DNA from: a virus
Lineage: Duplodnaviria > Heunggongvirae > Uroviricota > Caudoviricetes
DNA: 64,000 nt
Direction: 5' to 3' (one strand)
IMG/VR virus record: IMGVR_UViG_3300037484_000445
Span: 32,001 to 96,000 of that record
Position numbers and translations under genes: made by a program
Shown here: positions 22,773 through 36,471 of the stretch, piece by piece
Layout of the letters: each line of letters begins with the position of its first letter
Numbering within the stretch: position 1 is the first letter of the stretch
Notes under the pieces: model-generated
Told to the model about the DNA's origin: nothing
Database searches by the model: none
What the model saw: only the letters and a program-made list of their open reading frames with translations

Positions 22773-23041
22773 AACAGATCAAAGAACGCGTAGATGCCCT
22801 TAGTGTGAGGTTCAAGAAGGCTAGTGAGAAGAAGGCCAACCTCAGCGGGCTTTTGCAGGCCAAGAAAGAAGAGCTGAACGCTCTCGTCGAAGAGATTCGG
22901 ACTGCCGGACTCGATCCCAAGAAACTCAAAGAACACCGTGATGACCTGAAGCTGGAAGTCGAGACTATGATCAAGGAACTCGACGAGAAGCTTACATCTG
23001 TAGAAGGGGCCTTACAGGCCTATGATAAGGGAACGCCATGA
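22757..23041 (+). CDS. small coiled-coil protein
   Basis: Two heptad helices joined by GLDP; GAGGA RBS before the ATG at 22757. Confidence 0.7.
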   Translation: MSSTLEQIKERVDALSVRFKKASEKKANLSGLLQAKKEELNALVEEIRTAGLDPKKLKEHRDDLKLEVETMIKELDEKLTSVEGALQAYDKGTP

Positions 23042-24309
23042 AGATCAAACTATCCCTCAGTGCCTTGAATGAAGCTTTAGACCGAGTATCTGTTGTGAAG
23101 GCCTTTACTGGATCTAGCAAGATCGAAGCCTACTTGTTCACAGTCAAGGAAGGCCGTTGTCATATCCACTCGATGAACCTTGACACTATGGCAAGTCGCG
23201 TGGAAGTTCCTATTTTGGAGTCCGATTCCGACTTCAGCTTTGCCTATCCTTCGGACCGTGTTGCCGCCTTTAAGACGTTGGACGGCTGGATCGAGATCGA
23301 AGCGGGCAATACGGATACAGGGTTTTGGGTCAAGTACCTCACTGAGGGCGGTGCTTCCGCGGAACGTTCGACCTTTAGCTACAAGGGTTTGAACACGGTC
23401 GATATTCCTGATGAGACCCTGGCTAAGACGATGGTCTTCTCCACGGCCGTTCTAAAGGAGGCCCTCAATACGGCGGCTGAACCGATCGAGACCAATAGGG
23501 CCTCCAATGACTCGGAGAGCTCACACCTTCAGACGGTTCAGTTGTTTGACACCAGCCAGGATGATTGGGCTAAGGGTGATGGGACTTGCTTTGGTACCAA
23601 TGACGGGAATCGAAGCAACTACTTTCACAGTCCTAGTTTGATGGGTAAGGGATTCGCCATCCACGCCTTGAAGCTCGGCACTTTCATCAGCTTCCTGAAC
23701 AAATGCGGGAAGTCCGTCAAGATCGCCGTCGGCGATGGCAAGACCTACGCTATCGATCAGGTCGTTGGTGAGGGCGGGGAAGTGAAAGATGGGGCGGTAT
23801 TCGTTTGGTCGCAGCACAAGAAGCTCCACGGTAAGTATCGCTATGTCGGGGCCAAGCAAGACAAATTGGTTTTGTTGACGCCCAGGGAACTCATTCTGAA
23901 AGCTCTTCGGCAGGTTCGCCTCGAGATGCAAGATGCCAACCAGAACAAAATCCGTCTGGTCTATTCGAATGGCACCATACGATTCTTGGGCGGCGTCAAT
24001 AAGGAGACTGTGAAGAGCGTTGAAGTTCCGGTCAGGGTGTTGAGTGATAGTCTCGAGGACAGCCACAAGGATAGTGGTGGGGAATTCAAGGCCAACGCCA
24101 ATGTCCTCTACTTCATCGACCTGTTCTCCGACAGCAAAGTCAATGAAGTCGAACTCCGCGTTACGGTGTCTGATACGGGAAAGAGGGCCTTCAAGACGAT
24201 CGAGAAGTTCTTCTTGAATGATAGCGGCAAGATCGAAATCTCCCCTGAGAGCGCCAAGGAGGCCTGCCACGAATGCCTAGTGACCCGGTTCATGATGGCC
24301 ATGGAATAG
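23038..24309 (+). CDS. DNA polymerase III beta sliding clamp-like protein (divergent)
   Basis: MKIKL....LNEALDRV start and three alpha/beta domains with L.EAL/L.KAL helices as in DnaN; clamp-loader genes are present. Confidence 0.62.
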   Translation: MKIKLSLSALNEALDRVSVVKAFTGSSKIEAYLFTVKEGRCHIHSMNLDTMASRVEVPILESDSDFSFAYPSDRVAAFKTLDGWIEIEAGNTDTGFWVKYLTEGGASAERSTFSYKGLNTVDIPDETLAKTMVFSTAVLKEALNTAAEPIETNRASNDSESSHLQTVQLFDTSQDDWAKGDGTCFGTNDGNRSNYFHSPSLMGKGFAIHALKLGTFISFLNKCGKSVKIAVGDGKTYAIDQVVGEGGEVKDGAVFVWSQHKKLHGKYRYVGAKQDKLVLLTPRELILKALRQVRLEMQDANQNKIRLVYSNGTIRFLGGVNKETVKSVEVPVRVLSDSLEDSHKDSGGEFKANANVLYFIDLFSDSKVNEVELRVTVSDTGKRAFKTIEKFFLNDSGKIEISPESAKEACHECLVTRFMMAME

Positions 24310-25514: not shown

Positions 25515-26144
25515 ATGTCCATGAAACTGTCGATTCTTGAGCGTCTTCTAACCGTAGGCCGGCATCGCCCTCATCTTCATCCTGAGGTTTTGGATTTTGC
25601 TCCCCCGGTGGCGATGCAGTACCCGACGACCCATGATGAGGGACCTTGGGTCACATCCCTTTCTAAGGGGCGTTTTACCCGAACTAGGGCCAATCTCGAG
25701 GGCTACGTAGGGCAAGCTTTTCATACTTGCCCTATCGAGGAGGAAGACCGCCTGTTTGCCAACTTCTATGAGGACCTTTGGAAGATCTCCTCGGAGGCCG
25801 GATGGTCTAACCGTTGCATTTCAATCGAGGACGCCTTTCGGCAGATGAACGGTACCGGCTACGAGGGACGTGTGTTGGTGGTGCCCTATGCTTCTTTGCG
25901 TGAAGCTGTGGGTAAAGATTTGTCTGAGGAAGAAGCTGAACAAATCAGCCTTGCCAAGGGTTGTGTGGCTGAGGTGCAGGGTGTGAAGGTCATTTCGGCT
26001 CGAAGTTCTTTACCTGTGGGCTCAGCTGTATTGGCCACCGTAAAATCTTTGACGGGATACTACACAAGAGTCCGTGACCATGTTGGTGTAACGATCCTTC
26101 ACGCGGATCGATCGCTGATTTTGGTCGGACATGAAGTGGCTTGA
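25515..26144 (+). CDS. degenerate HK97-fold major capsid protein paralog
   Basis: By-eye colinear match to the C-terminal half of 51347..52225 (DAF; KGCVAEVQGVKVISAR vs TGLQATLWGAQIITSR; LPVG vs VPAG; HVGV vs NLGI). Confidence 0.55.
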   Translation: MSMKLSILERLLTVGRHRPHLHPEVLDFAPPVAMQYPTTHDEGPWVTSLSKGRFTRTRANLEGYVGQAFHTCPIEEEDRLFANFYEDLWKISSEAGWSNRCISIEDAFRQMNGTGYEGRVLVVPYASLREAVGKDLSEEEAEQISLAKGCVAEVQGVKVISARSSLPVGSAVLATVKSLTGYYTRVRDHVGVTILHADRSLILVGHEVA

Positions 26145-26850
26145 AACCTTAGTCCAATACGCTCACGCTAATCTCCAAGGCGACCGTGAACTGGAGGCCT
26201 TGTGGGAACGGGGAGCGTCTGATGAACAAATCCGAGATTTTCGGATAGGTTACCTGGACAAACAGCTCCCGCTCCTTCAAAATGCCCAGGAGTTCTATTC
26301 CTGGTATGGGTTCAACAAGTCAAAGTTGTTGGACGTGTTCGTTTTTCCCTTGACGAACGCCCTCGGTCAGGTGAAAGGTCTACAGTTTCGAAGGGTTGAA
26401 CGTAGAGCCAAAGGATACCTCGACTACCTCCCGGTTAAGGACGAACCCGCCTTCTTTGGGTTGAGTCAAGCCATGCCTCATGTGTGGAAGACTCGGACTA
26501 TCTGTTTAGTCGAAGGAGCTTTCGACCATTTTCCCGTGCAACGAGTCTTCCCGAACACCGTACCCACTATGACCTCAAGTGTTTCCACAGCCTTTTACAG
26601 ATTTCTGCGACGTAATGTGCAAGAGGTGTGGTTCTGCTACGATATGGATTCTGCCGGTAGAAAAGGTGTGTGGGAATTCCTCGAGAGTTACCGATTGGAA
26701 TTCAAGCGAATATTGCACCCTCAACTCCCCAGACTTGTGGCTGTGAACGGTCGCCTCACTAAGGATCCCGGTGAGCTGTGGGAGTGCCTAGGGGACGATC
26801 AGTTCCGTATGCGTCTGAAAACTGCGTTCGAAGGAGTCTGTTATGCCTAG
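26131..26850 (+). CDS. DnaG-type primase catalytic (TOPRIM) core lacking the zinc-binding domain
   Basis: FRIGY, VFPL...GQVKG..FR, LVEGAFD, YDMDSAG, KDPGE. Confidence 0.8.
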   Translation: MKWLETLVQYAHANLQGDRELEALWERGASDEQIRDFRIGYLDKQLPLLQNAQEFYSWYGFNKSKLLDVFVFPLTNALGQVKGLQFRRVERRAKGYLDYLPVKDEPAFFGLSQAMPHVWKTRTICLVEGAFDHFPVQRVFPNTVPTMTSSVSTAFYRFLRRNVQEVWFCYDMDSAGRKGVWEFLESYRLEFKRILHPQLPRLVAVNGRLTKDPGELWECLGDDQFRMRLKTAFEGVCYA

Positions 26851-27340
26851 AGAATGGTCAAAAGCTGATGATGCAATTGAGCGTATGGCCGAGGGCCTGA
26901 TCGCCAATTACCACCCCGAGCTGTCCACCGCTCGAATCATGTACGTGTTCATCTCTGAGGCCCCGAGTAAAGGTGGCCACAAGCTGTATGGAAAGGTATC
27001 CAAAGCGTCAGGCTTTTTGGAGTGGGCTTTGGAGCAAGACTTCATAGTGATGATCTCCGGGGACATCTGGAACACGAGTGAGTCCCACGAGCGTACTGCA
27101 ATTCTTGATCATCTCTTGGAGCGTTGTACTGGCGAAGAAGATGAAAAGGACGCTTCCATGAGCTGGAAGATCCGAGAACCTGACGTTCAGGAGTTCTCTT
27201 CGATCCTTGATCGTCATGGCGCTTGGAATACAACCTTAGCTGGCTTCATTTCCGTTGCGAAGAAGGTTGACCTTTCGGGATTTGAAGAGAACAGTGAAAA
27301 GGGCGTCGACCTAACTACTGTTGAAACCACGGAGGGCTGA
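26843..27340 (+). CDS. putative phage metallopeptidase-family protein with degenerate metal site
   Basis: Family-like pattern I.YVF..GK..K, DFIV.I..DIW, AILDHLLER, REPDVQEF...RHGAW. Confidence 0.6.
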   Translation: MPREWSKADDAIERMAEGLIANYHPELSTARIMYVFISEAPSKGGHKLYGKVSKASGFLEWALEQDFIVMISGDIWNTSESHERTAILDHLLERCTGEEDEKDASMSWKIREPDVQEFSSILDRHGAWNTTLAGFISVAKKVDLSGFEENSEKGVDLTTVETTEG

Positions 27341-28782: not shown

Positions 28783-30609
28783 GTGGGGCTGTGGGTTGTA
28801 CTAGAGACAGTCGTACGTAGTGAACAGCCCGATCCGGAAGCTGTTCGTAAGGCTATTTCGCGTGTATTGCCAGGCACTGAAGTGTTCGTGCCAGCAGCTG
28901 TATCTCAAGTAGGATCGGATAGAGTCACATCGTACTTGCTTGAGGGGTATGTCTTCGTTCGTTACGATCGATCGGCTTCCGATTATTTCAAGCTCGACGG
29001 TACAAAGTACATTCAGAACGTTCTTCTGTCTCCGGGCAGCCAAAACCGAAACAAACGCATCTCGACGGTGGATGATGTCCACGTCTTGAAGATGCGCGAG
29101 CAGATCAAGCAGCTCGTCGACAAGGGTATCAGCATAGGTGATACCGTGATGATCACCTCGGGCCCCTATCGGAACATGACCGCTGTTGTACTCGAGGATT
29201 TTCCCGAGGAGAACAAGGTTCAGGTTCACATTGGCCTAAGGTCTAAGCAAAGTCTCATCTCCTTTCCACGGTCGTTTTTGACGGTCGTGTCAAAGTCCCC
29301 ACTTTCTTCAATCCTTAGCCACCTGAAGTCCTTACAGGATTGGGTCAAAATTGTTGAGCCGATCCTGACTTGGGAAGCTTCAGTGGAACCTCTACAGCGG
29401 TCGTATAGGGCTTACATACGATCCGTGGAGTTTTTCGATCGTTCCATCAATTCCATCTGGTTTAGGATGTTCTCGAGTATGGTTCCTAACTACTTGGTAG
29501 CCATCAATACTCGGATGGGATCTTTGACTCGTTGGGAAAATGCACCCGAACGCTTGAGTCATCTTACGACCTTTGTTCACGTCTATGAGAGCCGAGAAAC
29601 AGCGGAACTCCTGAAGAAGCTTCGGGCTAAAATGAACCGCCTTGTTTGGCTTGAAAGTGTCTTGAACCGTATTCAAACCCTGTGGAACGATGTGGACAAG
29701 CTTTCCAAGTCTCTTGCCAGAAAAGATAAAGGTAGGGTCATGAATCACAATGTGTTGGTGGATGGACACAATCTGGCTTTTCGCTGTCTTTATGCTCCGG
29801 GTATAGCGGACCTGAGGGACAGCCAGAGTAGACCTACTGGGATGATTTTAGGTGTTCTACGGAGCTTAGCGTCCCTCAAGAAGCGATTCCCGGATGCTAC
29901 CCTTATGGTGGCTTGGGATGGATCCTCTCAACGACGTAAGCGGAAATTCTCTGAGTATAAGGCCAACCGTAAAGCTCACGAAGTCGTTGCAGAGGGGGCG
30001 TTTGATCCCTTAGGGTTCATCAAAGTAATTCTACCTCTTTTAGGGGTACCTCAAATTTGGAATCCTAAGGAAGAAGCCGACGATGTCATCGCTACCTTAG
30101 TGAAAGGTAAGCTAAAGGGTGACATAAACATAGTTTTCTCTACAGACCGAGATTTACTGCAATTGGTGACCCCCACAACACACCTGTTGGTGCCGCCTGT
30201 TGGTAGTCGGAACGAGATCCTGTTTGATCCAGAGGCAGTTCAGGAGGCTATGGGGGTACCTCCAAACAAAGTTGTGGAACTTCGGGCGCTCTATGGAGAC
30301 ACATCGGACAACATCCCTGGCGTGCCTCGAGTGCCGAAAAAAGTGCTTAAAGACCTCATTCAGGCACATGGTTCTGTGGATGGTTTGTACCGTTCAGGGC
30401 TGGCAGGGCTAAACAAGGGTCAATATGAAAGGTTGCGTTCTGCGGAACCTCAAGTCAGAATCAACTTGGATCTGGCGACCTTGGTTGACGTGGTCGTCTC
30501 TACCACCCCCTCAGATGTGGACCCTGACCGCGCAACAACGTTGTTGCGCGAGCTGGACATAAACCCCAGTAGTCTTCTCGACGTCTTTTTTGGGAACTTA
30601 CCACCATGA
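28783..30609 (+). CDS. NusG-like (NGN+KOW) domain fused to PolI-type 5'-3' exonuclease/flap endonuclease
   Basis: N-terminal WVVL, VFVP, LLEGYVFV and GDTVMITSGPY (KOW). From 29740: LVDG.N, PTG, WDG, YKANR, EADD, STDRD..QL, GDTSDNIPGV. No stop codon between the two parts. Confidence 0.88.
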   Translation: MGLWVVLETVVRSEQPDPEAVRKAISRVLPGTEVFVPAAVSQVGSDRVTSYLLEGYVFVRYDRSASDYFKLDGTKYIQNVLLSPGSQNRNKRISTVDDVHVLKMREQIKQLVDKGISIGDTVMITSGPYRNMTAVVLEDFPEENKVQVHIGLRSKQSLISFPRSFLTVVSKSPLSSILSHLKSLQDWVKIVEPILTWEASVEPLQRSYRAYIRSVEFFDRSINSIWFRMFSSMVPNYLVAINTRMGSLTRWENAPERLSHLTTFVHVYESRETAELLKKLRAKMNRLVWLESVLNRIQTLWNDVDKLSKSLARKDKGRVMNHNVLVDGHNLAFRCLYAPGIADLRDSQSRPTGMILGVLRSLASLKKRFPDATLMVAWDGSSQRRKRKFSEYKANRKAHEVVAEGAFDPLGFIKVILPLLGVPQIWNPKEEADDVIATLVKGKLKGDINIVFSTDRDLLQLVTPTTHLLVPPVGSRNEILFDPEAVQEAMGVPPNKVVELRALYGDTSDNIPGVPRVPKKVLKDLIQAHGSVDGLYRSGLAGLNKGQYERLRSAEPQVRINLDLATLVDVVVSTTPSDVDPDRATTLLRELDINPSSLLDVFFGNLPP

Positions 30610-31343
30610 GTTCAGGCTATGTCATCCCCACAAACCCTCTGGAATTGGCCTCTCGCGTACAGTACCATGATCCTAGGTTTGAGGAGGATGACGAGGAGTA
30701 CCTCGATCCGGAAGAAGCCGAGGTTCGAAACGTAAGCCTTGATACTTTTGCCAGCTACTTTCCAGACGGGGACTACGAGAGTCGTATCGTCCCTTTGTTG
30801 GATCGCATCCCTGAGCGCGAGGCCGACTTCATTGAGATGTACTTTTTGCAGAAGAAGATCCAGGCGGACATAGCCCAGATCTTCGGGGTGACTCAGGCAG
30901 CTGTTAGTTATCGTCTAGTCCGTGGTGTGAAGCGTCTCAAGTTCCTGATCACCATCCCACAGGTGACCGAAGAAGAACTTAGGGCTGACTTACCTAAGAT
31001 TTTCCCAGCTAGATTAGGGTGTCCCGTTTGCGAACGTTCTTCGAACAGAGATTGCCCCGTGTGTCATGGATCTAGGATCATACTTTTAGATGTTGAGATC
31101 CTAGTAGGTATGTGGGGGATCACCTGCCAATCGAAAGTGGCTGACAAGTTAGGCCTGACTCAGGGGAGAGTCAGGCACCGCTTTTTTAGGGCTGTAGGGA
31201 CCCTGGCGTCGGCGGCAAAGGTGGACGAACGGTTCTTGCCCTACCACCAGATATTTAGCATTATGTCCTCTAAGAAGTTCAACATCCTTCATGAGGTACG
31301 CCTTCCGCAGTGGGCGGATCGTGGCGTGGATGAATGCGCCTAA
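30606..31343 (+). CDS. double HTH (sigma-70 region 4-like) transcription factor with Zn-ribbon insert
   Basis: LDRIPERE...QADIAQIFGVTQAAVSYRL; CPVC..CPVC; QSKVADKLGLTQGRVRHRF. Confidence 0.7.
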   Translation: MSSGYVIPTNPLELASRVQYHDPRFEEDDEEYLDPEEAEVRNVSLDTFASYFPDGDYESRIVPLLDRIPEREADFIEMYFLQKKIQADIAQIFGVTQAAVSYRLVRGVKRLKFLITIPQVTEEELRADLPKIFPARLGCPVCERSSNRDCPVCHGSRIILLDVEILVGMWGITCQSKVADKLGLTQGRVRHRFFRAVGTLASAAKVDERFLPYHQIFSIMSSKKFNILHEVRLPQWADRGVDECA

Positions 31344-31415: not shown

Positions 31416-32324
31416 TTGCCGATTTCCGCCGCCAACCTCAGTAACCAAGATTTAGGGTTCAGCCTGAACCTAAACGGTCGTGTTTGGAGGTGGAAGACCC
31501 GCATGGATGTGTCGGGTTTGACACCGACCTTCCAAATCATCGACATTCTGACCCCCTATGGGGTTTTTCGGGATGCCGTACCGCTTCCGGGGGAAGTCGT
31601 GCAGGCTATGAGCGATTCAATCGCTTCTTTGCTGGCCAACTTCCAGCCAAGCATACTCCTTGGACCACCGAGCTCTCTGGTCTTTACGGTGGACGAAGGT
31701 CGCGGATATTCACAGCCACTATCGGGTCGCCTTACAAATAATGGCGTCTTTGGTTCGTTGCTCAGTGGCACGTTGATTCCGTCGGCGCCTTATATCCACA
31801 TTTCCCCTGAGGTGGTGGGCCACCTGGCATCGAACCAGTACGGCTTGTTCGATGTCTCTGTGGATTCGACGGACTTGTTGGCGTCTTCCAGCCCCTACGC
31901 GGCGTCTATCACCGTTCAAGACACGTCGGCTTCAAATTCTCCCCAAACTCTGCCTGTGGTCATTAACGTTCGACCTTTGGCCATTGTTGCAGCAACTCCC
32001 ACGCCACTAAACTTCGCTGTGATTCGTCCTGTGAGTGGCCCGTTTCCGGCGATCCCCACGCAGACTTTCAATGCGGAAAACACGGGACCTGCGGGTTCTT
32101 ACCTCGAGTACCAAATCACTCGCCTGACAGGGCTATCTCAGAACTGGTTGGCTGGGTTCAGCCCAACTTATGGGGCTCTCACGTCGGGGACTCAACAGGC
32201 TATCACGGTCACAGTGACTCCTGTTGAAGGTTTATTGCCCGGTGTGTACGAGGAAACCTTGAGAGTCAGTGGGTACTCCTTCAATTCTTACGCGGATGTT
32301 CTAGTACGACTGACCATTACGTGA
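31416..32324 (+). CDS. virion protein with two BACON/Ig-like domains
   Basis: P.SLVF...G.S..L.N.G / NWL..SP..G.L..G....I.V.V..L.PG.Y...L.V pattern; GGAGGAG RBS. Confidence 0.65.
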   Translation: MPISAANLSNQDLGFSLNLNGRVWRWKTRMDVSGLTPTFQIIDILTPYGVFRDAVPLPGEVVQAMSDSIASLLANFQPSILLGPPSSLVFTVDEGRGYSQPLSGRLTNNGVFGSLLSGTLIPSAPYIHISPEVVGHLASNQYGLFDVSVDSTDLLASSSPYAASITVQDTSASNSPQTLPVVINVRPLAIVAATPTPLNFAVIRPVSGPFPAIPTQTFNAENTGPAGSYLEYQITRLTGLSQNWLAGFSPTYGALTSGTQQAITVTVTPVEGLLPGVYEETLRVSGYSFNSYADVLVRLTIT

Positions 32325-32332
32325 GGCTAACG

Positions 32333-32620
32333 ATGAGCGACTTCAAATTGGACCAGATTCAAACGGGGTCGTCCGGCATGGATGCCTTTTTCGAGCAAGA
32401 ACCCCAGATGATCCAACCATTTGGGCAGAAGGCTGCCGCAACTACAAGGCCTCCCCGTATCAAGGTTGGTTCGTTGGCCCAGCTCAATGGGTTCAATAGG
32501 ATTTCAGCTGAAACCCTGATCCACAAGTCAACCCAGGACCTTTGGACCATCACCAATGAGGGTGGTGACCTTTACATCCAACGGTTGTTTTCGGACAACG
32601 GGGGCCCTCTAAAGGGTTAA
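32333..32620 (+). CDS. small head-module protein
   Basis: 95 aa, translationally coupled; LIHKS.QDLW and RLF.D.G.PLKG. Confidence 0.6.
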   Translation: MSDFKLDQIQTGSSGMDAFFEQEPQMIQPFGQKAAATTRPPRIKVGSLAQLNGFNRISAETLIHKSTQDLWTITNEGGDLYIQRLFSDNGGPLKG

Positions 32621-32624
32621 GGTC

Positions 32625-34019
32625 TTGAGCACCAACACCGCACAAAGAAGGCTCATAGCCAGGTACCTCAACGCGAAACCCGTGGAGAACAAAATCGATC
32701 TTCACACAGAGTTTCCGATTGCTATGTTGCGTCTGGCGGGATCCGAACGAACCGCGGCCTTTCCTCCTTTTTCCAAGAATGGTCCCCCTGAACAACCAGT
32801 TGAAGGGGGCGGTACTTCAAAGCGAAACATTCCCAAGGATCACCCTTACGACCCACGATCCTTGAAGCCTATGGCCAAGTCGTTGTGGGCTGCGAGCGTG
32901 AGTTTAGGTCATGCCCTAACGGCTTATCGTCACTTGAGCCGCTTGAAGTCCGGTACCATCAGCCCCGATGGGATGCTTGGGGGGCGGGGTTACGTGATGG
33001 GTATAGCGGATATCCGCAAGAAGCTCTATGACGCTTGTGAAGCCCTAAGTGCCATCACGGATACCCTTCACGACGAGATCATGGCACCTCATTGGAAGCC
33101 TCGTTTAGCTCAATTGGATGCTGAAGAGGCCGAGGACGTCGAGAACTACGTTGAGGAATCCCAGGAAATATTAGCCAATCCTGAGGATGAGGCTGAAGAA
33201 GAGGCTGACGAGATCGAAAGTCACAAGCCCAAGGCAAAGGGCGCTGATGACGAAGATGAGAAGGACGAGGACGAAGGATCCTCGGAATTACCCGGTGGTG
33301 GAAGCCCACCTGAAGCGTCGGCACCCCAACCGATGACGCCCAAGATGGCTAATTCGGCGTGGCCTACAGGAGTGCTTCCTGGGGGCCCTAGAATTGTGCA
33401 TTTGGATCGTCAAGATCCAGACCCCAACCCTCCTGAGGCCTACCCTTCCGATGACTGGGGGACTCCAACGGAAAAAGAGTACCTGTACCCCACACCGTTT
33501 ATGGGTGTCACGGTGCAGGCTGAATCCGTTGTGCCCGACGCTACAACGGAAGACACACCCACGGAAGCTTGGGACTTTGGATTGGGCTACGGTGCTCACG
33601 GACAGGGTGCTGGCGGGTACGAGAACCCTTCGGACGAAGGTGTTGGCAACAAGGGTGTTTGGGGACCACACAGTGGTCTGCCTGGAACTCCCCCTATTTC
33701 TTCCGGGGATAGTACACCAGAACTAGATTACAAGACCAATGAACACTTGGCCCAAGGGCTTCTCCCGAATGACGGCCAACCCCCTGTAGCTCGGACGGAC
33801 TATTTCCGTGGGGATCGTGGAAATCTGATCAACACGCAATCCACTTTACCAGGAGAGTCGACGCCAAGCGGAGAGTTTGCTCCTAGCTTGATGAACACCG
33901 ACTTCACCTATGAGGACGTAGAAACCCCTTACGTCCGATATGACTACACCACTCACGATTACAGGAAAGACCCCCTTCATGCTTGGCCTCAAAAAGCTGA
34001 GCAGGACAAAGAGCCATGA
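32625..34019 (+). CDS. putative internal head protein (acidic, low complexity)
   Basis: 464 aa; RRLIARYLNA tag and RLAG, RTAA, KMAN, VQAE motifs between segments. Confidence 0.6.
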   Translation: MSTNTAQRRLIARYLNAKPVENKIDLHTEFPIAMLRLAGSERTAAFPPFSKNGPPEQPVEGGGTSKRNIPKDHPYDPRSLKPMAKSLWAASVSLGHALTAYRHLSRLKSGTISPDGMLGGRGYVMGIADIRKKLYDACEALSAITDTLHDEIMAPHWKPRLAQLDAEEAEDVENYVEESQEILANPEDEAEEEADEIESHKPKAKGADDEDEKDEDEGSSELPGGGSPPEASAPQPMTPKMANSAWPTGVLPGGPRIVHLDRQDPDPNPPEAYPSDDWGTPTEKEYLYPTPFMGVTVQAESVVPDATTEDTPTEAWDFGLGYGAHGQGAGGYENPSDEGVGNKGVWGPHSGLPGTPPISSGDSTPELDYKTNEHLAQGLLPNDGQPPVARTDYFRGDRGNLINTQSTLPGESTPSGEFAPSLMNTDFTYEDVETPYVRYDYTTHDYRKDPLHAWPQKAEQDKEP

Positions 34020-35983
34020 CTGAACTTGGAGACTTGACTAGCTTCTTCAAAGAGGGTTCAGCTGTTTCCAACCTCGATTGGTTGGACGTTGACGAGCAAG
34101 CCTATCGTGAGTTGGAGACGCTCCCGAAGCAGAACTTGGATATAGCTCCAGACCTTGAGGCTCTGTGGAGTCATCAAGATGGGTCTCCGTCCAAACTCGT
34201 TCCAAACACAGGTGCCCCAAGAACTATGGGGGATCTTTCTGAGGCTCACGGGCGACTGCGTTCGGTGCCTGAGGATTTGATCCGAACGGCTCGATTGGCC
34301 ATAATCCAAACGACGAACCCCCAAAAGATCAGTAACTTACTGAAGGTTCGTTATGACGGCGATACCCTGGCCGCGGCGAAAACAGCCTTAGGTCAGGTAT
34401 TTGCTGAGCGTGGTCTATTGGGCAGGCTCTATATTGCTGCCAGCGATTTCACCAATTGTCAGGCATCGGCGGACTTTGTTCGACGCTTTGCTTCCGAGGC
34501 TAAGTACGTTTTAGCCAAGCAAGCTTGCGGTGATTGTACCCGCAGACATGCCCAGGCTAATGGATCCAGTCATTGTAGTGTGTTTCACAAGGAAATACAG
34601 CTGGATGTTCCCTACTCAGAGGCTTTGGCTCGCGAAGTCGAAAAGCGAGAAGTTTCTAAGAGTAAGGCAATACAAGCCTCGAGTGCAGATCCTAAAGAGA
34701 GGATCCGTAATGCCTTCTTGGCAGAGGAGTTCGCAACCTCAGCTAGCTTCACAGGACGTACTCAGGTGGTTTCACCTCGAGTGGCCGTTGATACTAGTCA
34801 GGTTCTGATATCTGCCGAGAACCTGACCAAACAACGTAAGGCTAGCGAGCAAAAGGCCCTAGCTGAAGTCAAAGCTCGTCCAATTGTGGCCCTACTCCGT
34901 CGAGAGATGATCAAAGGTCGCTCCGCTGAAGAGTTGGTCAAGACCTTGAGGTTGGCATTCGATGTTAGGGACTTGGGTGAGACTCAAGCCGTGTGGGCTC
35001 CTTTGTTTAAGGAAGCTGGCCTCTATGGTGCAGTCTACATCACACAGGAATCCTTCGACGATTGCCGTGAAGGGGCTGACTTCACGAACAAGCATGCTTC
35101 CAAGGCTAGGGCCATTGTGGCCGGCAACAAATGCTCTAGTTGCTTCTTCCGTCAGGCAGCTCGTTGCATGATGTACGGCCGTAAGCTGATTGGTTCGGCT
35201 GAAGAGGTGCTCACAACCGAAACCGTTCAAGCCGTGATTGATGAAGGTCGTATCGCTGGTAAACTGCCCTACGACGCAGCTCAGAGGCATTGGGGGTCTA
35301 CTCCAGTAGAGGCTCTGAAAGCCCTTCACAAGGCAGCCTCGGCGCCCCTGGCTGGGACCGTCTTGGATGTCCGCGGTACCATTGAAAGAGCCTTCCATGG
35401 TGCCACCCGCGTCACTCAGACAGGTGAGCTCACGAAGCGCAACATTGTAAAGGCAACTTCGCGGTATCTGAATGAAGGTCTTTATGGAGAAGACCTCAAA
35501 CAGGTACTTCAGAGTAGCTTTGGCCCGAGGGATCTTCTGGCTGCAGCCCAAGAACTCAAGGTGGTTCTGGCTGAGCAAGGACTCCAAGGCATCAAGTACA
35601 TCGATCCGACAGTCTATGCCGATTACGGAAAGGGTTGTGCTGAAGCGTCTCGGCTTCATCGATCGCGATCTGCAGTTCGCTACGCAAAGGTGGGTCCCAG
35701 TTGTGGATCTTGTGTCCACCAATCTTGCCCAGGTACATGCTCGGTCCTCAACAAGCTGTTAGTCGTTGAGCCCCCCTATATTGACAAGTTGGCAGAACAG
35801 CAAGCCATCCTAGATTCAGGGCGTTCGACAGAGGTTACTTACGCCTCTTTGGTGAACAACGGTCTCACAACAATGCAGGAGTACCAGTTGCAGAACCAAG
35901 ACATGTCCTTGGATCTCAATCCTGTAATGGCTTCAGATGCCACTTGGGTTGAGTTTGGTGTGCAGCAGGAGCTCAAACTGTGA
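34016..35983 (+). CDS. head-module protein with three about 190-200 aa Cys-rich repeats
   Basis: Three copies of GLxGxxYI..C..CxxC..C starting near 34409, 35015 and 35576. Confidence 0.7.
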   Translation: MTELGDLTSFFKEGSAVSNLDWLDVDEQAYRELETLPKQNLDIAPDLEALWSHQDGSPSKLVPNTGAPRTMGDLSEAHGRLRSVPEDLIRTARLAIIQTTNPQKISNLLKVRYDGDTLAAAKTALGQVFAERGLLGRLYIAASDFTNCQASADFVRRFASEAKYVLAKQACGDCTRRHAQANGSSHCSVFHKEIQLDVPYSEALAREVEKREVSKSKAIQASSADPKERIRNAFLAEEFATSASFTGRTQVVSPRVAVDTSQVLISAENLTKQRKASEQKALAEVKARPIVALLRREMIKGRSAEELVKTLRLAFDVRDLGETQAVWAPLFKEAGLYGAVYITQESFDDCREGADFTNKHASKARAIVAGNKCSSCFFRQAARCMMYGRKLIGSAEEVLTTETVQAVIDEGRIAGKLPYDAAQRHWGSTPVEALKALHKAASAPLAGTVLDVRGTIERAFHGATRVTQTGELTKRNIVKATSRYLNEGLYGEDLKQVLQSSFGPRDLLAAAQELKVVLAEQGLQGIKYIDPTVYADYGKGCAEASRLHRSRSAVRYAKVGPSCGSCVHQSCPGTCSVLNKLLVVEPPYIDKLAEQQAILDSGRSTEVTYASLVNNGLTTMQEYQLQNQDMSLDLNPVMASDATWVEFGVQQELKL

Positions 35984-36471
35984 AACGTCTTCGTGGCCAA
36001 TACGAGTATGTAGCCATTTTTGATGACGCCTCCTATTTTCCGGGCGTGTCAAAGGCGGCTAAAAAAGTTGCCGCTGCTTTTAGGGCTTCGACAGTGGTTC
36101 ATCGTTTGGTCGCTCGTTACAAGACAGCAAATCAGCCTCCAGGAGCTCGGCAGAAGGCTAGGAAGAACACGAACCCCATCAACAAACCTAGGGGTATTGT
36201 CAAGGAAGTAGCCAAAGAACACGGCGCTATGCGAGTAGAGGGGGACGACAACGTCAGGCCTCAATCTCGAGACATTTTGCCTAAGGACGTCTTCACACCC
36301 ACCCCCGATCATACAGGGGTCCTGAACCTAGCTCAGAGTGGGAAGGACTTGTCCAAACCTATCAATAAGCAGGTCCCCAAGGATAAGGGTTACGACGTTG
36401 TTCGCAACCTCTCTCAGTACCTGATCCGAACGAAAGGTACCGGAGAAGAGGGGACCGAGGAAGGTCGTTAG
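35980..36471 (+). CDS. basic putative internal head protein
   Basis: KVAA, FRAS, and HRLVARYKTA tag followed by a K/R-rich region. Confidence 0.6.
   Translation: MKRLRGQYEYVAIFDDASYFPGVSKAAKKVAAAFRASTVVHRLVARYKTANQPPGARQKARKNTNPINKPRGIVKEVAKEHGAMRVEGDDNVRPQSRDILPKDVFTPTPDHTGVLNLAQSGKDLSKPINKQVPKDKGYDVVRNLSQYLIRTKGTGEEGTEEGR

Follow-up and report, generated by a model that had tools for sequence, protein, structure and literature searches.

Why would a bacteriophage join a transcription elongation factor of the NusG family to a 5' nuclease of the DNA polymerase I type in a single polypeptide? NusG/Spt5 is the sole transcription factor common to all domains of life; to our knowledge its known paralogues recruit their partners non-covalently and none has been described with an attached nuclease, and our literature searches found no description of a NusG-nuclease fusion. 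The gene considered here belongs to an uncultured phage with a 452-kb genome and lies within a stretch of 64,000 nucleotides (henceforth referred to as 'the window', whose positions are used throughout). A sequence-only reading had proposed that one 608-amino acid ORF comprises an NGN domain, a KOW domain, a helical spacer and a complete Pol I-type 5' nuclease (flap endonuclease, FEN), and all four parts were confirmed. ORF analysis returned a single open frame without a break, beginning at a GTG codon, which divides as follows:

28783..30609, + strand: NusG-like/FEN fusion ORF, 608 aa; the GTG start abuts the clamp-loader stop codon, and full-length homologues exist
28783..29118, + strand: NGN domain, aa 1-112, with the hydrophobic patch L53/Y56/F58 (family profile, Foldseek, VIA-align, alignment to E. 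coli NusG and RfaH)
29119..29298, + strand: KOW domain, predicted beta-barrel, aa 113-172, with the invariant LRSK loop at 152-155 (Pfam, VIA-align, alignments)
29299..29739, + strand: predicted helical spacer, aa 173-319 (model prediction; KOW-to-FEN distances in homologues)
29740..29742, + strand: in-frame ATG (M320), preceded by AAAGGTAGGGTC, four residues before FEN strand 1; candidate internal or relic start
29752..30255, + strand: FEN PIN-like catalytic domain, aa 324-491, including the putative arch motif Y392-K393-x-x-R396 (Pfam, alignment, FenA structural match)
30256..30516, + strand: FEN H3TH/SAM-fold DNA-binding domain, aa 492-578, with GDxSDNIPG (Pfam, alignment)
30517..30606, + strand: conserved tail at the C-terminus, aa 579-608, with the end motif (I/L)L(D/E)xFFG (homologue alignment)

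The N-terminal module resembles NusG and RfaH

Judged by a family profile, a Foldseek search and VIA-align comparison of its predicted structure, the N-terminal module is NusG-like. The family profile picks up the NusG proteins of A. aeolicus (8.6e-10) and T. maritima (4e-9), and the best-ranked Foldseek matches listed are chains of NusG, RfaH or Spt5, or complexes in which these occur. In the AF2 model of the module, where pLDDT exceeds 90 across the NGN domain, VIA-align matched the predicted NGN to that of RfaH (8pen_P; Z 10.0, 97/101 residues) and of E. coli NusG (6vz7; Z 8.6), and the KOW domain to that of T. maritima NusG (Z 11, rmsd 1.1 A over 55 residues); the KOW is modelled as a beta-barrel and not in the autoinhibitory alpha-helical state of RfaH, a prediction that is compatible with fold switching. 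At the level of single Pfam models, the KOW match (aa 119-149) reaches 24.3 bits (cut-off 22.3) and is the sole KOW genome-wide, and the NusG NGN model scores 17.1 bits on aa 4-95, under its cut-off of 22.2, which three relatives (P0177, P0197 and P0204) exceed. The equivalog models of housekeeping NusG (TIGR00922; 31.4 bits, cut-off 135.7) and of RfaH (TIGR01955; 22.3 bits, cut-off 144.5) were not reached.

The hydrophobic patch by which NusG and RfaH contact the beta' clamp helices of RNA polymerase (PMC5314768, PMC7593976) is represented in the alignment, with phage L53/Y56/F58 corresponding to F65/Y68/L70 of NusG and F51/Y54/F56 of RfaH. Y56 and F58 are invariant among 30 homologues, and F58 occupies the position of F56, which RfaH needs to bind RNA polymerase (PMC7593976). 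The loop through which NusG contacts Rho, I164-F165-G166 (PMC7593976), is replaced: it aligns with the invariant L152-R153-S154 of the LRSK loop. As to the polymerase concerned, Pfam models for beta, beta' and T7-like enzymes and a search for the NADFDGD motif found no recognisable phage RNA polymerase in the genome, although the T7-like model was run without a positive control and a very divergent phage polymerase could escape these models; phage sigma factors, on the other hand, are encoded. One relative, P0200 (a single sighting, on a short contig), joins a sigma protein with regions 2 and 4 to an NGN-KOW of the same subfamily, and NGN and sigma region 2 use a common site on the beta' clamp helices (PMC5314768). 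Docking of the N-terminal module on RNA polymerase is thus supported only indirectly, by the NusG-like fold and the conserved patch with its RfaH-type Phe, by the presence of phage sigma factors where no phage polymerase was found, and by the sigma fusion in one relative. The module may instead have been re-purposed for another partner, for instance a replisome protein, the ribosome (via S10) or nucleic acid, and the protein would then be purely a replication or repair enzyme. The LRSK loop, being both family-specific and invariant, does imply a dedicated partner, and the gene lies within a replication operon; we nevertheless find such re-purposing very doubtful, because the polymerase-binding patch is conserved, a relative carries the sigma-NGN fusion and a sigma-4 gene is always adjacent.

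The C-terminal half is a Pol I-type 5' nuclease

Both halves of the nuclease are recognized by Pfam, the catalytic domain as 5_3_exonuc_N (PF02739, aa 324-491; 5e-29, 101.4 bits, cut-off 34.3) and the DNA-binding domain as the 5_3_exonuc SAM fold (PF01367, aa 492-578; 5e-15, 56.2 bits, cut-off 40). The acidic motifs had been read as intact, and the alignment bears this out: nine acidic residues (D327, E430, E431, D433, D434, D455, D457, D506 and D509) show no variation across 30 homologues, at least 90% of which also retain D379. Y392, K393 and R396, which fall within the arch segment of the predicted model, are also invariant; in the T5 enzyme the conserved Lys of the helical arch is K83 (PMC5499597). 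The best structural match of the domain is M. smegmatis FenA (6c33; E 1.5e-17, TM 0.77); ExoIX, Taq and T5 FEN match as well. The DNA polymerase I models NF004397 and TIGR00593 score 169.6 bits (cut-off 720) and cover profile positions 4-252 only, and the family A polymerase of this phage has an ORF of its own (940 aa) at another place in the genome and carries no 5' nuclease. The fusion holds the sole FEN of a genome whose replication set further includes a clamp, a clamp loader, a primase, an NAD ligase (LigA) and RNase HII.

These features bear on the outcomes suggested for a polymerase-tethered nuclease, which were torpedo-like termination, R-loop removal, host mRNA destruction and replication-coupled late transcription. 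A nuclease carried by RNA polymerase could in principle degrade nascent or host RNA 5' to 3', as a covalent analogue of Spt5 with Xrn2/Rat1, and such a scheme has a precedent in that Spt5 contacts and stimulates Xrn2 on Pol II (PMC11695829), and XRN and Pol I 5' nucleases fall into the same FEN-like structural group (PMC5499597). The phage domain is nonetheless of the PF02739/PF01367 type, with no XRN_N match in a Pfam scan of the fusion protein at E values up to 1, and its nearest structures are DNA flap endonucleases. The bacterial torpedoes known so far are, moreover, of the RNase J type. Since the nuclease is Pol I-type, is the only one available to the phage's own replisome genes and is encoded beside them in a replication operon, torpedo termination and host mRNA destruction rank lowest among the four outcomes, and we regard this reading as highly improbable.

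Between the two functional halves, the spacer (about 145 residues) is predicted to form four or five helices and gave neither a structural match nor an Atlas match. Its sequence drifts (mean identity 27%), yet its length is tightly constrained, the distance from KOW to FEN having a median of 174 aa and quartiles of 172-178 (n=147). The conserved tail at the other end of the nuclease ends like no other ORF of the genome. A role for it as a clamp-binding motif was considered and set aside as a guess without support: with the motif absent from every other ORF of the genome, there is no sign that it serves as a clamp-binding peptide.

The fusion is conserved among related phages

Relatives of the gene do not always come as two genes: the full-length fusion is kept in at least 151 homologues (cluster representatives) and in 11 independent viral contigs of 49-529 kb, which share the order clamp, clamp loader, fusion, sigma-4, and it is retained down to 37-44% identity. 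An open frame that is kept so widely argues against an assembly artefact. In a 407-kb relative (L096), however, the two halves are overlapping genes divided exactly at the junction, and they stay adjacent with an ATGA overlap; covalent linkage is thus not obligatory. A second apparent case was rejected, because P0276 (320 aa, on a 437-kb contig), called as a stand-alone FEN, proved to be an internal-start gene call within a fused 605-aa ORF. Stand-alone FEN protein matches cannot therefore be counted as splits without DNA, and L096 is the sole DNA-verified split. For two short N-module proteins, P0132 and P0273, the nearest viral relatives have fused ORFs, and a scan of genome contigs for P0273 found nothing. 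In INPHARED an N-module homologue was present in one uncultured 485-kb phage only, as a stand-alone ORF of about 207 aa. Besides P0200, one further odd fusion was seen once, again on a short contig, namely a FEN-sigma4 protein (P0314) that looks like a read-through of an intergenic stretch; a scan of viral contigs for P0200 and P0314 found nothing.

The existence of a split form raises the question of whether the nuclease is also made on its own. The in-frame ATG at 29740 and the GGTAGGG ahead of it, both pointed out from the sequence, are present in the DNA. A Met occurs at position -4 or -5 relative to the FEN in 78/151 homologues versus about 10% expected, and the FEN gene of the split relative begins at the Met equivalent to M320; the Shine-Dalgarno-like signal ahead of the internal Met is inconsistent over 10 DNA loci. 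M320 may be an internal start or the relic of an ancestral FEN start, and a free FEN made from it would weaken the argument for tethering. In that direction lies the reading that two independent and uncoupled functions merely share a polypeptide, an antiterminator and competitor of host NusG on the one hand and a replication FEN on the other, with M320 perhaps adding free FEN. The clean split in one relative, the excess of Met residues at the junction and the poor sequence conservation of the spacer all fit it. The persistence of the fusion in distant homologues, the near-constant spacer length, the adjacency of even the split genes and the irregular Shine-Dalgarno-like signal speak against it, and overall we consider it rather unlikely.

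The fusion lies between a clamp loader and a double sigma-4 protein

The neighbourhood had been described as the border of the replication and late modules; genes for terminase and portal are found 6.5-11 kb downstream of the fusion. The immediate neighbours were identified correctly, the fusion being preceded by a clamp loader and followed by a protein that gives two sigma-70 region-4 matches:

Window 23038-24309: phage clamp
27346..28782, + strand: clamp loader (DnaX/delta'-like AAA+), whose stop codon abuts the fusion start
30606..31343, + strand: protein with two sigma-70 region-4-like HTH domains, whose ATG overlaps the TGA of the fusion (ATGA)

In relatives the double sigma-4 gene always directly follows the fusion. 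This arrangement invites the proposal that the fusion is an adaptor for replication-coupled late transcription, with the NGN domain at the sigma region 2 site, the double sigma-4 protein providing flap and promoter contacts, and the FEN and tail anchoring the complex to nicks, flaps or the sliding clamp, in the manner of T4 gp55/gp33/gp45. The gene order with its translational coupling just upstream of packaging and head genes, the binding site common to NGN and sigma region 2 (PMC5314768), the sigma-NGN and FEN-sigma-4 fusions and the conserved hydrophobic tail are all compatible with such an adaptor. A pure adaptor, though, would not need invariant catalytic residues, and the tail, confined to this one ORF, bears no sign of a clamp-binding peptide. 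NGN domains, moreover, are not known to open promoters. We therefore judge a late-transcription adaptor unlikely. Quite unlikely is its specific form in which the NGN-FEN fusion and the double sigma-4 protein would jointly replace sigma on the host RNA polymerase, the NGN taking the sigma-2 site and the sigma-4 domains the flap, with the FEN using nicks, flaps or the clamp as a loading signal. If it were true, replication would license late transcription in huge phages through a nuclease domain, and we know of no system in which transcription is licensed in that way.

Proposed role of the fusion

The reading that we favour, at somewhat less than even confidence, is that the fusion acts as an RfaH-like factor on the host RNA polymerase and keeps the replication flap nuclease on phage DNA that is being transcribed. 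The protein would be a specialised RfaH-like NusG paralogue, tied covalently through a helical spacer of fixed length to the sole replication flap endonuclease of the phage. Its NGN domain would dock on host RNA polymerase transcribing phage DNA, at the beta' clamp helices, with an affinity that may be as high as that of RfaH, given that the residue corresponding to RfaH F56 is also a Phe, and would thereby exclude host NusG; since the Rho-contact loop is not kept, the long same-strand operons of the phage may be shielded from Rho. The tethered FEN would in this way be concentrated on transcribed, replicating phage DNA, where it would remove primers and flaps and probably also clear RNA-DNA hybrids, or the mRNA-primed ends that encounters between replisomes and RNA polymerase leave behind. 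The double sigma-4 protein, which is translationally coupled to the fusion, probably belongs to one set of RNA polymerase-modifying factors with it.

The conserved fusion points to an undescribed link of phage transcription and DNA replication. It suggests, in huge phages, a direct physical connection between transcription and the processing of the lagging strand or of R-loops, and so is relevant to the ways in which phage genomes of 400 kb, with their long same-strand operons, cope with replication-transcription conflicts and with Rho.

Comparison with known systems

Like the specialised NusG paralogues RfaH, LoaP, UpxY and ActX/TaA, the phage protein has an NGN and one KOW domain, has lost the Rho-contact loop of NusG and is encoded on a horizontally mobile element with long operons; with RfaH in particular it shares the patch with the RfaH-type Phe (phage F58, RfaH F56). 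It differs from these paralogues in that all its NCBIfam scores are far under the cut-offs, in its family-specific LRSK loop, and in that the KOW is followed by the helical spacer and an enzyme domain. With the stand-alone and Pol I-linked 5' nucleases of bacteria and phages (M. smegmatis FenA, E. coli ExoIX/Xni, the Taq/Pol I 5' domain, T5 D15 and T4 RNase H), the nuclease half shares the PIN-like and H3TH domains and all the acidic metal ligands, and it has a putative arch motif, YKxxR, whereas at its N-terminus it is joined to a transcription-factor module, not a polymerase, and it has an extra conserved C-terminal tail.

Late transcription in T4, with gp55, gp33 and gp45 (the sliding clamp), is an example of factors at the sigma-2 and sigma-4 sites of the host RNA polymerase being tied to replication proteins. 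A functional analogy between these proteins and the fusion with its double sigma-4 neighbour is possible and serves as a lead only; the two systems have no sequence relationship, clamp binding by the phage fusion is conjecture, and in the phage an enzyme domain takes part. Another parallel is Spt5 (DSIF) with Xrn2/Rat1 on RNA polymerase II, in which a factor of the NusG family and a 5'-3' nuclease from the FEN-like structural group are physically associated on an elongating polymerase (PMC11695829, PMC5499597). That pairing is non-covalent, employs an XRN-type exoribonuclease and results in termination, whereas the phage link is covalent and employs a Pol I-type DNA flap endonuclease; the fusion would represent a natural covalent counterpart of the eukaryotic Spt5-Xrn2 pair.

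Results

A sequence-only reading of this region had described one uninterrupted 608-aa ORF comprising NGN and KOW domains, a helical spacer and a complete Pol I-type 5' nuclease, and this description was borne out by the ORF itself, Pfam matches, structural models and alignment.

Features of the fusion (aa, positions in the protein)
28783–30609, + strand: NusG-like/FEN fusion ORF, open without interruption over 608 codons
aa 119–149: KOW (Pfam, over the curated cut-off)
aa 324–491: 5'-3' exonuclease N domain (Pfam, 5e-29)
aa 492–578: SAM/H3TH domain of 5'-3' exonuclease (Pfam, 5e-15)

The start codon is a GTG immediately 3' of the clamp-loader TAA, and the TGA shares ATGA with the ATG of the next gene, which encodes a protein with two sigma-70 region-4-like domains (henceforth referred to as 'double sigma-4'). 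The Pfam NusG NGN model matched aa 4–95 with a score under the cut-off; NCBIfam gave partial Pol I and FEN matches on the C-terminal half and NusG, LoaP, RfaH and UpxY matches, all sub-threshold, on the N-terminal half; and the PHROGs labels were 'exonuclease' and 'transcription antiterminator'.

The fusion is genuine and old. By word-indexed search, more than 120 full-length proteins (600–640 aa, 44–97% identity) were retrieved on contigs of up to 476 kb, some of them named 'exonuclease/transcription antitermination factor NusG' by the JGI pipeline, and an exhaustive HMMER search with aa 1–320 alone gave 61 representatives at E <1e-30, ~45 of 512–691 aa and the remainder shorter. Altogether 151 distinct full-length fused forms were counted, and the ORF was uninterrupted in 11 viral contigs of 49–529 kb (L004–L011, L084, L093 and L095; 37–53% identity), which answers in the affirmative whether related phages keep the fusion. 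Mean identity to the window protein was 64% over FEN, 60% over KOW, 49% over NGN and 27% over the spacer. L004–L011 share, as far as the contigs extend, the order clamp, ATPase, two unknowns, primase, metallopeptidase, clamp loader, fusion, double sigma-4 and five unknowns (the check on L084, L093 and L095 covered just the continuity of the ORF). The 407-kb contig L096 encodes the halves as two genes, 320 and 309 aa, that are read in different frames and overlap by an ATGA right at the domain junction; the sigma-4 gene comes next. This two-gene form could reflect a true split or be due to a frameshift error. A candidate stand-alone FEN, the 320-aa JGI call P0276, was rejected, as its start is an ATG inside a fused ORF of 605 aa (L095:4146–5963). 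'Stand-alone FEN' database entries in this clade can thus be calling artefacts, and 'short forms' should count as splits only with DNA to back them.

Several neighbouring genes were also noted. A phage metallopeptidase gene (PF18894, 1.5e-20) lies at 26843–27340, flanked by the Toprim-only primase and clamp-loader genes, and is syntenic in relatives; the primase ORF (26131–26850) is short at 239 aa and shows a Toprim domain and a weak match to the DnaG N terminus, no zinc-finger domain being detected. Between the two HTH domains of the double sigma-4 protein (30606–31343) lies a 25-aa zinc-ribbon-like insert, CPVC...CPVC (about 31011–31085), that is missing from the L096 orthologue. Five ORFs of 302, 99, 464, 655 and 163 aa follow at 31416–36471, between replication and packaging genes and in identical order in every related huge-phage contig; a Pfam/PHROG scan of the 302-, 464-, 655- and 163-aa ORFs gave no match. 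A GroEL/Cpn60-type chaperonin gene (359–1972, 1.6e-69) opens the window, with genes for B12-type ribonucleotide reductase and NAD-dependent ligase downstream of it.

The C-terminal module is predicted to be a complete Pol I-type flap endonuclease with its active site residues intact. The full-length model (mean pLDDT 81.5) best matched M. smegmatis FenA (6c33; E 1.5e-17, TM 0.77), followed by plastid exonuclease, ExoIX, Taq and T5 FEN. Across A1, an alignment of 30 homologues 44–90% identical, nine acidic residues are invariant (D327, E430, E431, D433, D434, D455, D457, D506 and D509), in line with the intact acidic motifs first read, and Y392, K393 and R396, in the arch segment of the model, are likewise invariant. 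A torpedo or RNA destroyer would have a eukaryotic parallel in Spt5, which binds and stimulates Xrn2 (PMC11695829), and a FEN-like fold is common to XRN nucleases (PMC5499597); however, the nuclease domain of the fusion is of the DNA flap endonuclease type, and we regard such a role as highly improbable.

The earlier suggestion of an internal start at 29740 held in part: the in-frame ATG is present, with AAAGGTAGGGTC just upstream, but the purine-rich signal is inconsistent over ten DNA loci, two of which have no start codon there. In 78 of 151 homologues, versus ~10% expected, a Met lies ≤7 residues ahead of FEN strand 1, most often at -4 or -5; the majority of the remainder carry Val at that position, and the L096 FEN gene begins at the equivalent Met. 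This Met is explained equally well by a relic of an ancestral FEN start and by a working internal start, and production of free FEN is, roughly judged, possible but doubtful.

Residues 173–318 form four or five predicted helices in the models, for which no structural match was found. From the KOW loop to FEN strand 1 the spacing varies little (median 174 aa, quartiles 172–178, n = 147), so that the spacer behaves like a ruler rather than junk. That one chain simply carries two independent functions we consider fairly unlikely.

The source virus record is 451,925 bp long and an estimated 94% complete. The fusion is the sole FEN and sole KOW of the genome, the family A DNA polymerase being a separate 940-aa ORF without a 5' nuclease domain; NAD ligase, RecD2, RecA, Mre11 and a PD-(D/E)XK nuclease lie upstream within the window, RNase HII is encoded elsewhere and RNase HI is absent from the genome. 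The sigma complement of the genome consists of a complete 250-aa factor (r2+r4), a further, weak r2 match and, beside the fusion, the double region-4 protein, and no beta, beta' or T7-like RNA polymerase or NADFDGD motif was found in the genome; judging from this gene content, it is most likely host RNA polymerase that the phage redirects. The terminase, portal and protease genes start 6.5 kb downstream, thus placing the fusion at the replication/structural border, as first read. A replication-coupled late-transcription adaptor, by analogy with T4, would be an unlikely role for it.

The N-terminal module belongs to the NusG family and consists of an NGN and a KOW. Searched against PDB sequences, a profile built from 30 such modules (A2) matched A. 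aeolicus NusG (8.6e-10) and T. maritima NusG (4e-9), with Spt5 and E. coli NusG ranked lower. The AlphaFold2 model of aa 1–320 had pLDDT >90 over NGN and KOW, and the top Foldseek matches listed were NusG, RfaH or Spt5 chains or complexes containing them. By VIA-align, KOW superposed on that of T. maritima NusG (Z 11, rmsd 1.1 A, 55 residues), and NGN on RNA-polymerase-bound RfaH (Z 10, 97/101 residues) and E. coli NusG (Z 8.6).

Discussion

No description of a NusG–nuclease fusion was found in the literature searched, and among cultured and deposited phages one uncultured 485-kb record only has an N-module homologue, which stands alone. We tentatively favour a NusG-like module on host RNA polymerase that holds FEN on transcribed phage DNA. 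The NGN would dock on the polymerase with RfaH-like affinity, displacing host NusG and bringing no Rho; the spacer of fixed length would keep FEN on the transcribed phage DNA, where it would remove primers and flaps and clear RNA–DNA hybrids; and the double sigma-4 protein would be a member of the same set.

Two further architectures were each sighted once. P0200 (541 aa, 18-kb JGI metagenome contig) joins sigma-70 r2+r4 through a basic, tandem-repeat linker to an NGN–KOW of the window protein's subfamily, which fits with NGN and sigma region 2 binding RNA polymerase at one and the same place, the beta' clamp helices (PMC5314768). P0314 (496 aa, 4.5-kb Logan contig) has FEN in frame with a double sigma-4 orthologue (42% identity), and its joint resembles intergenic sequence that is being translated (read-through).

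When the N module was aligned with NusG and RfaH of E. coli MG1655, L53, Y56 and F58 corresponded to NusG F65, Y68 and L70 and to RfaH F51, Y54 and F56. The NusG hydrophobic patch includes F65 and Y68 (PMC5314768), and RNA polymerase binding by RfaH requires F56, the Leu of NusG giving weaker binding (PMC7593976); F58 is invariant in the 30 A1 homologues. The invariant L152-R153-S154-K155 aligns with the NusG loop I164-F165-G166, which makes key Rho contacts (PMC7593976). Because of the RfaH-type F58 and LRSK in place of the Rho loop, the N module looks like a tight-binding, specialised NusG paralogue that would bring in no Rho and whose KOW surface looks to be retained for some partner; that the N module binds a non-polymerase partner in place of RNA polymerase is quite improbable. 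The fusion thus has in common with RfaH a Phe at the F56 position, whereas E. coli NusG has Leu there and its own Rho loop where the fusion has L152-R153-S154.
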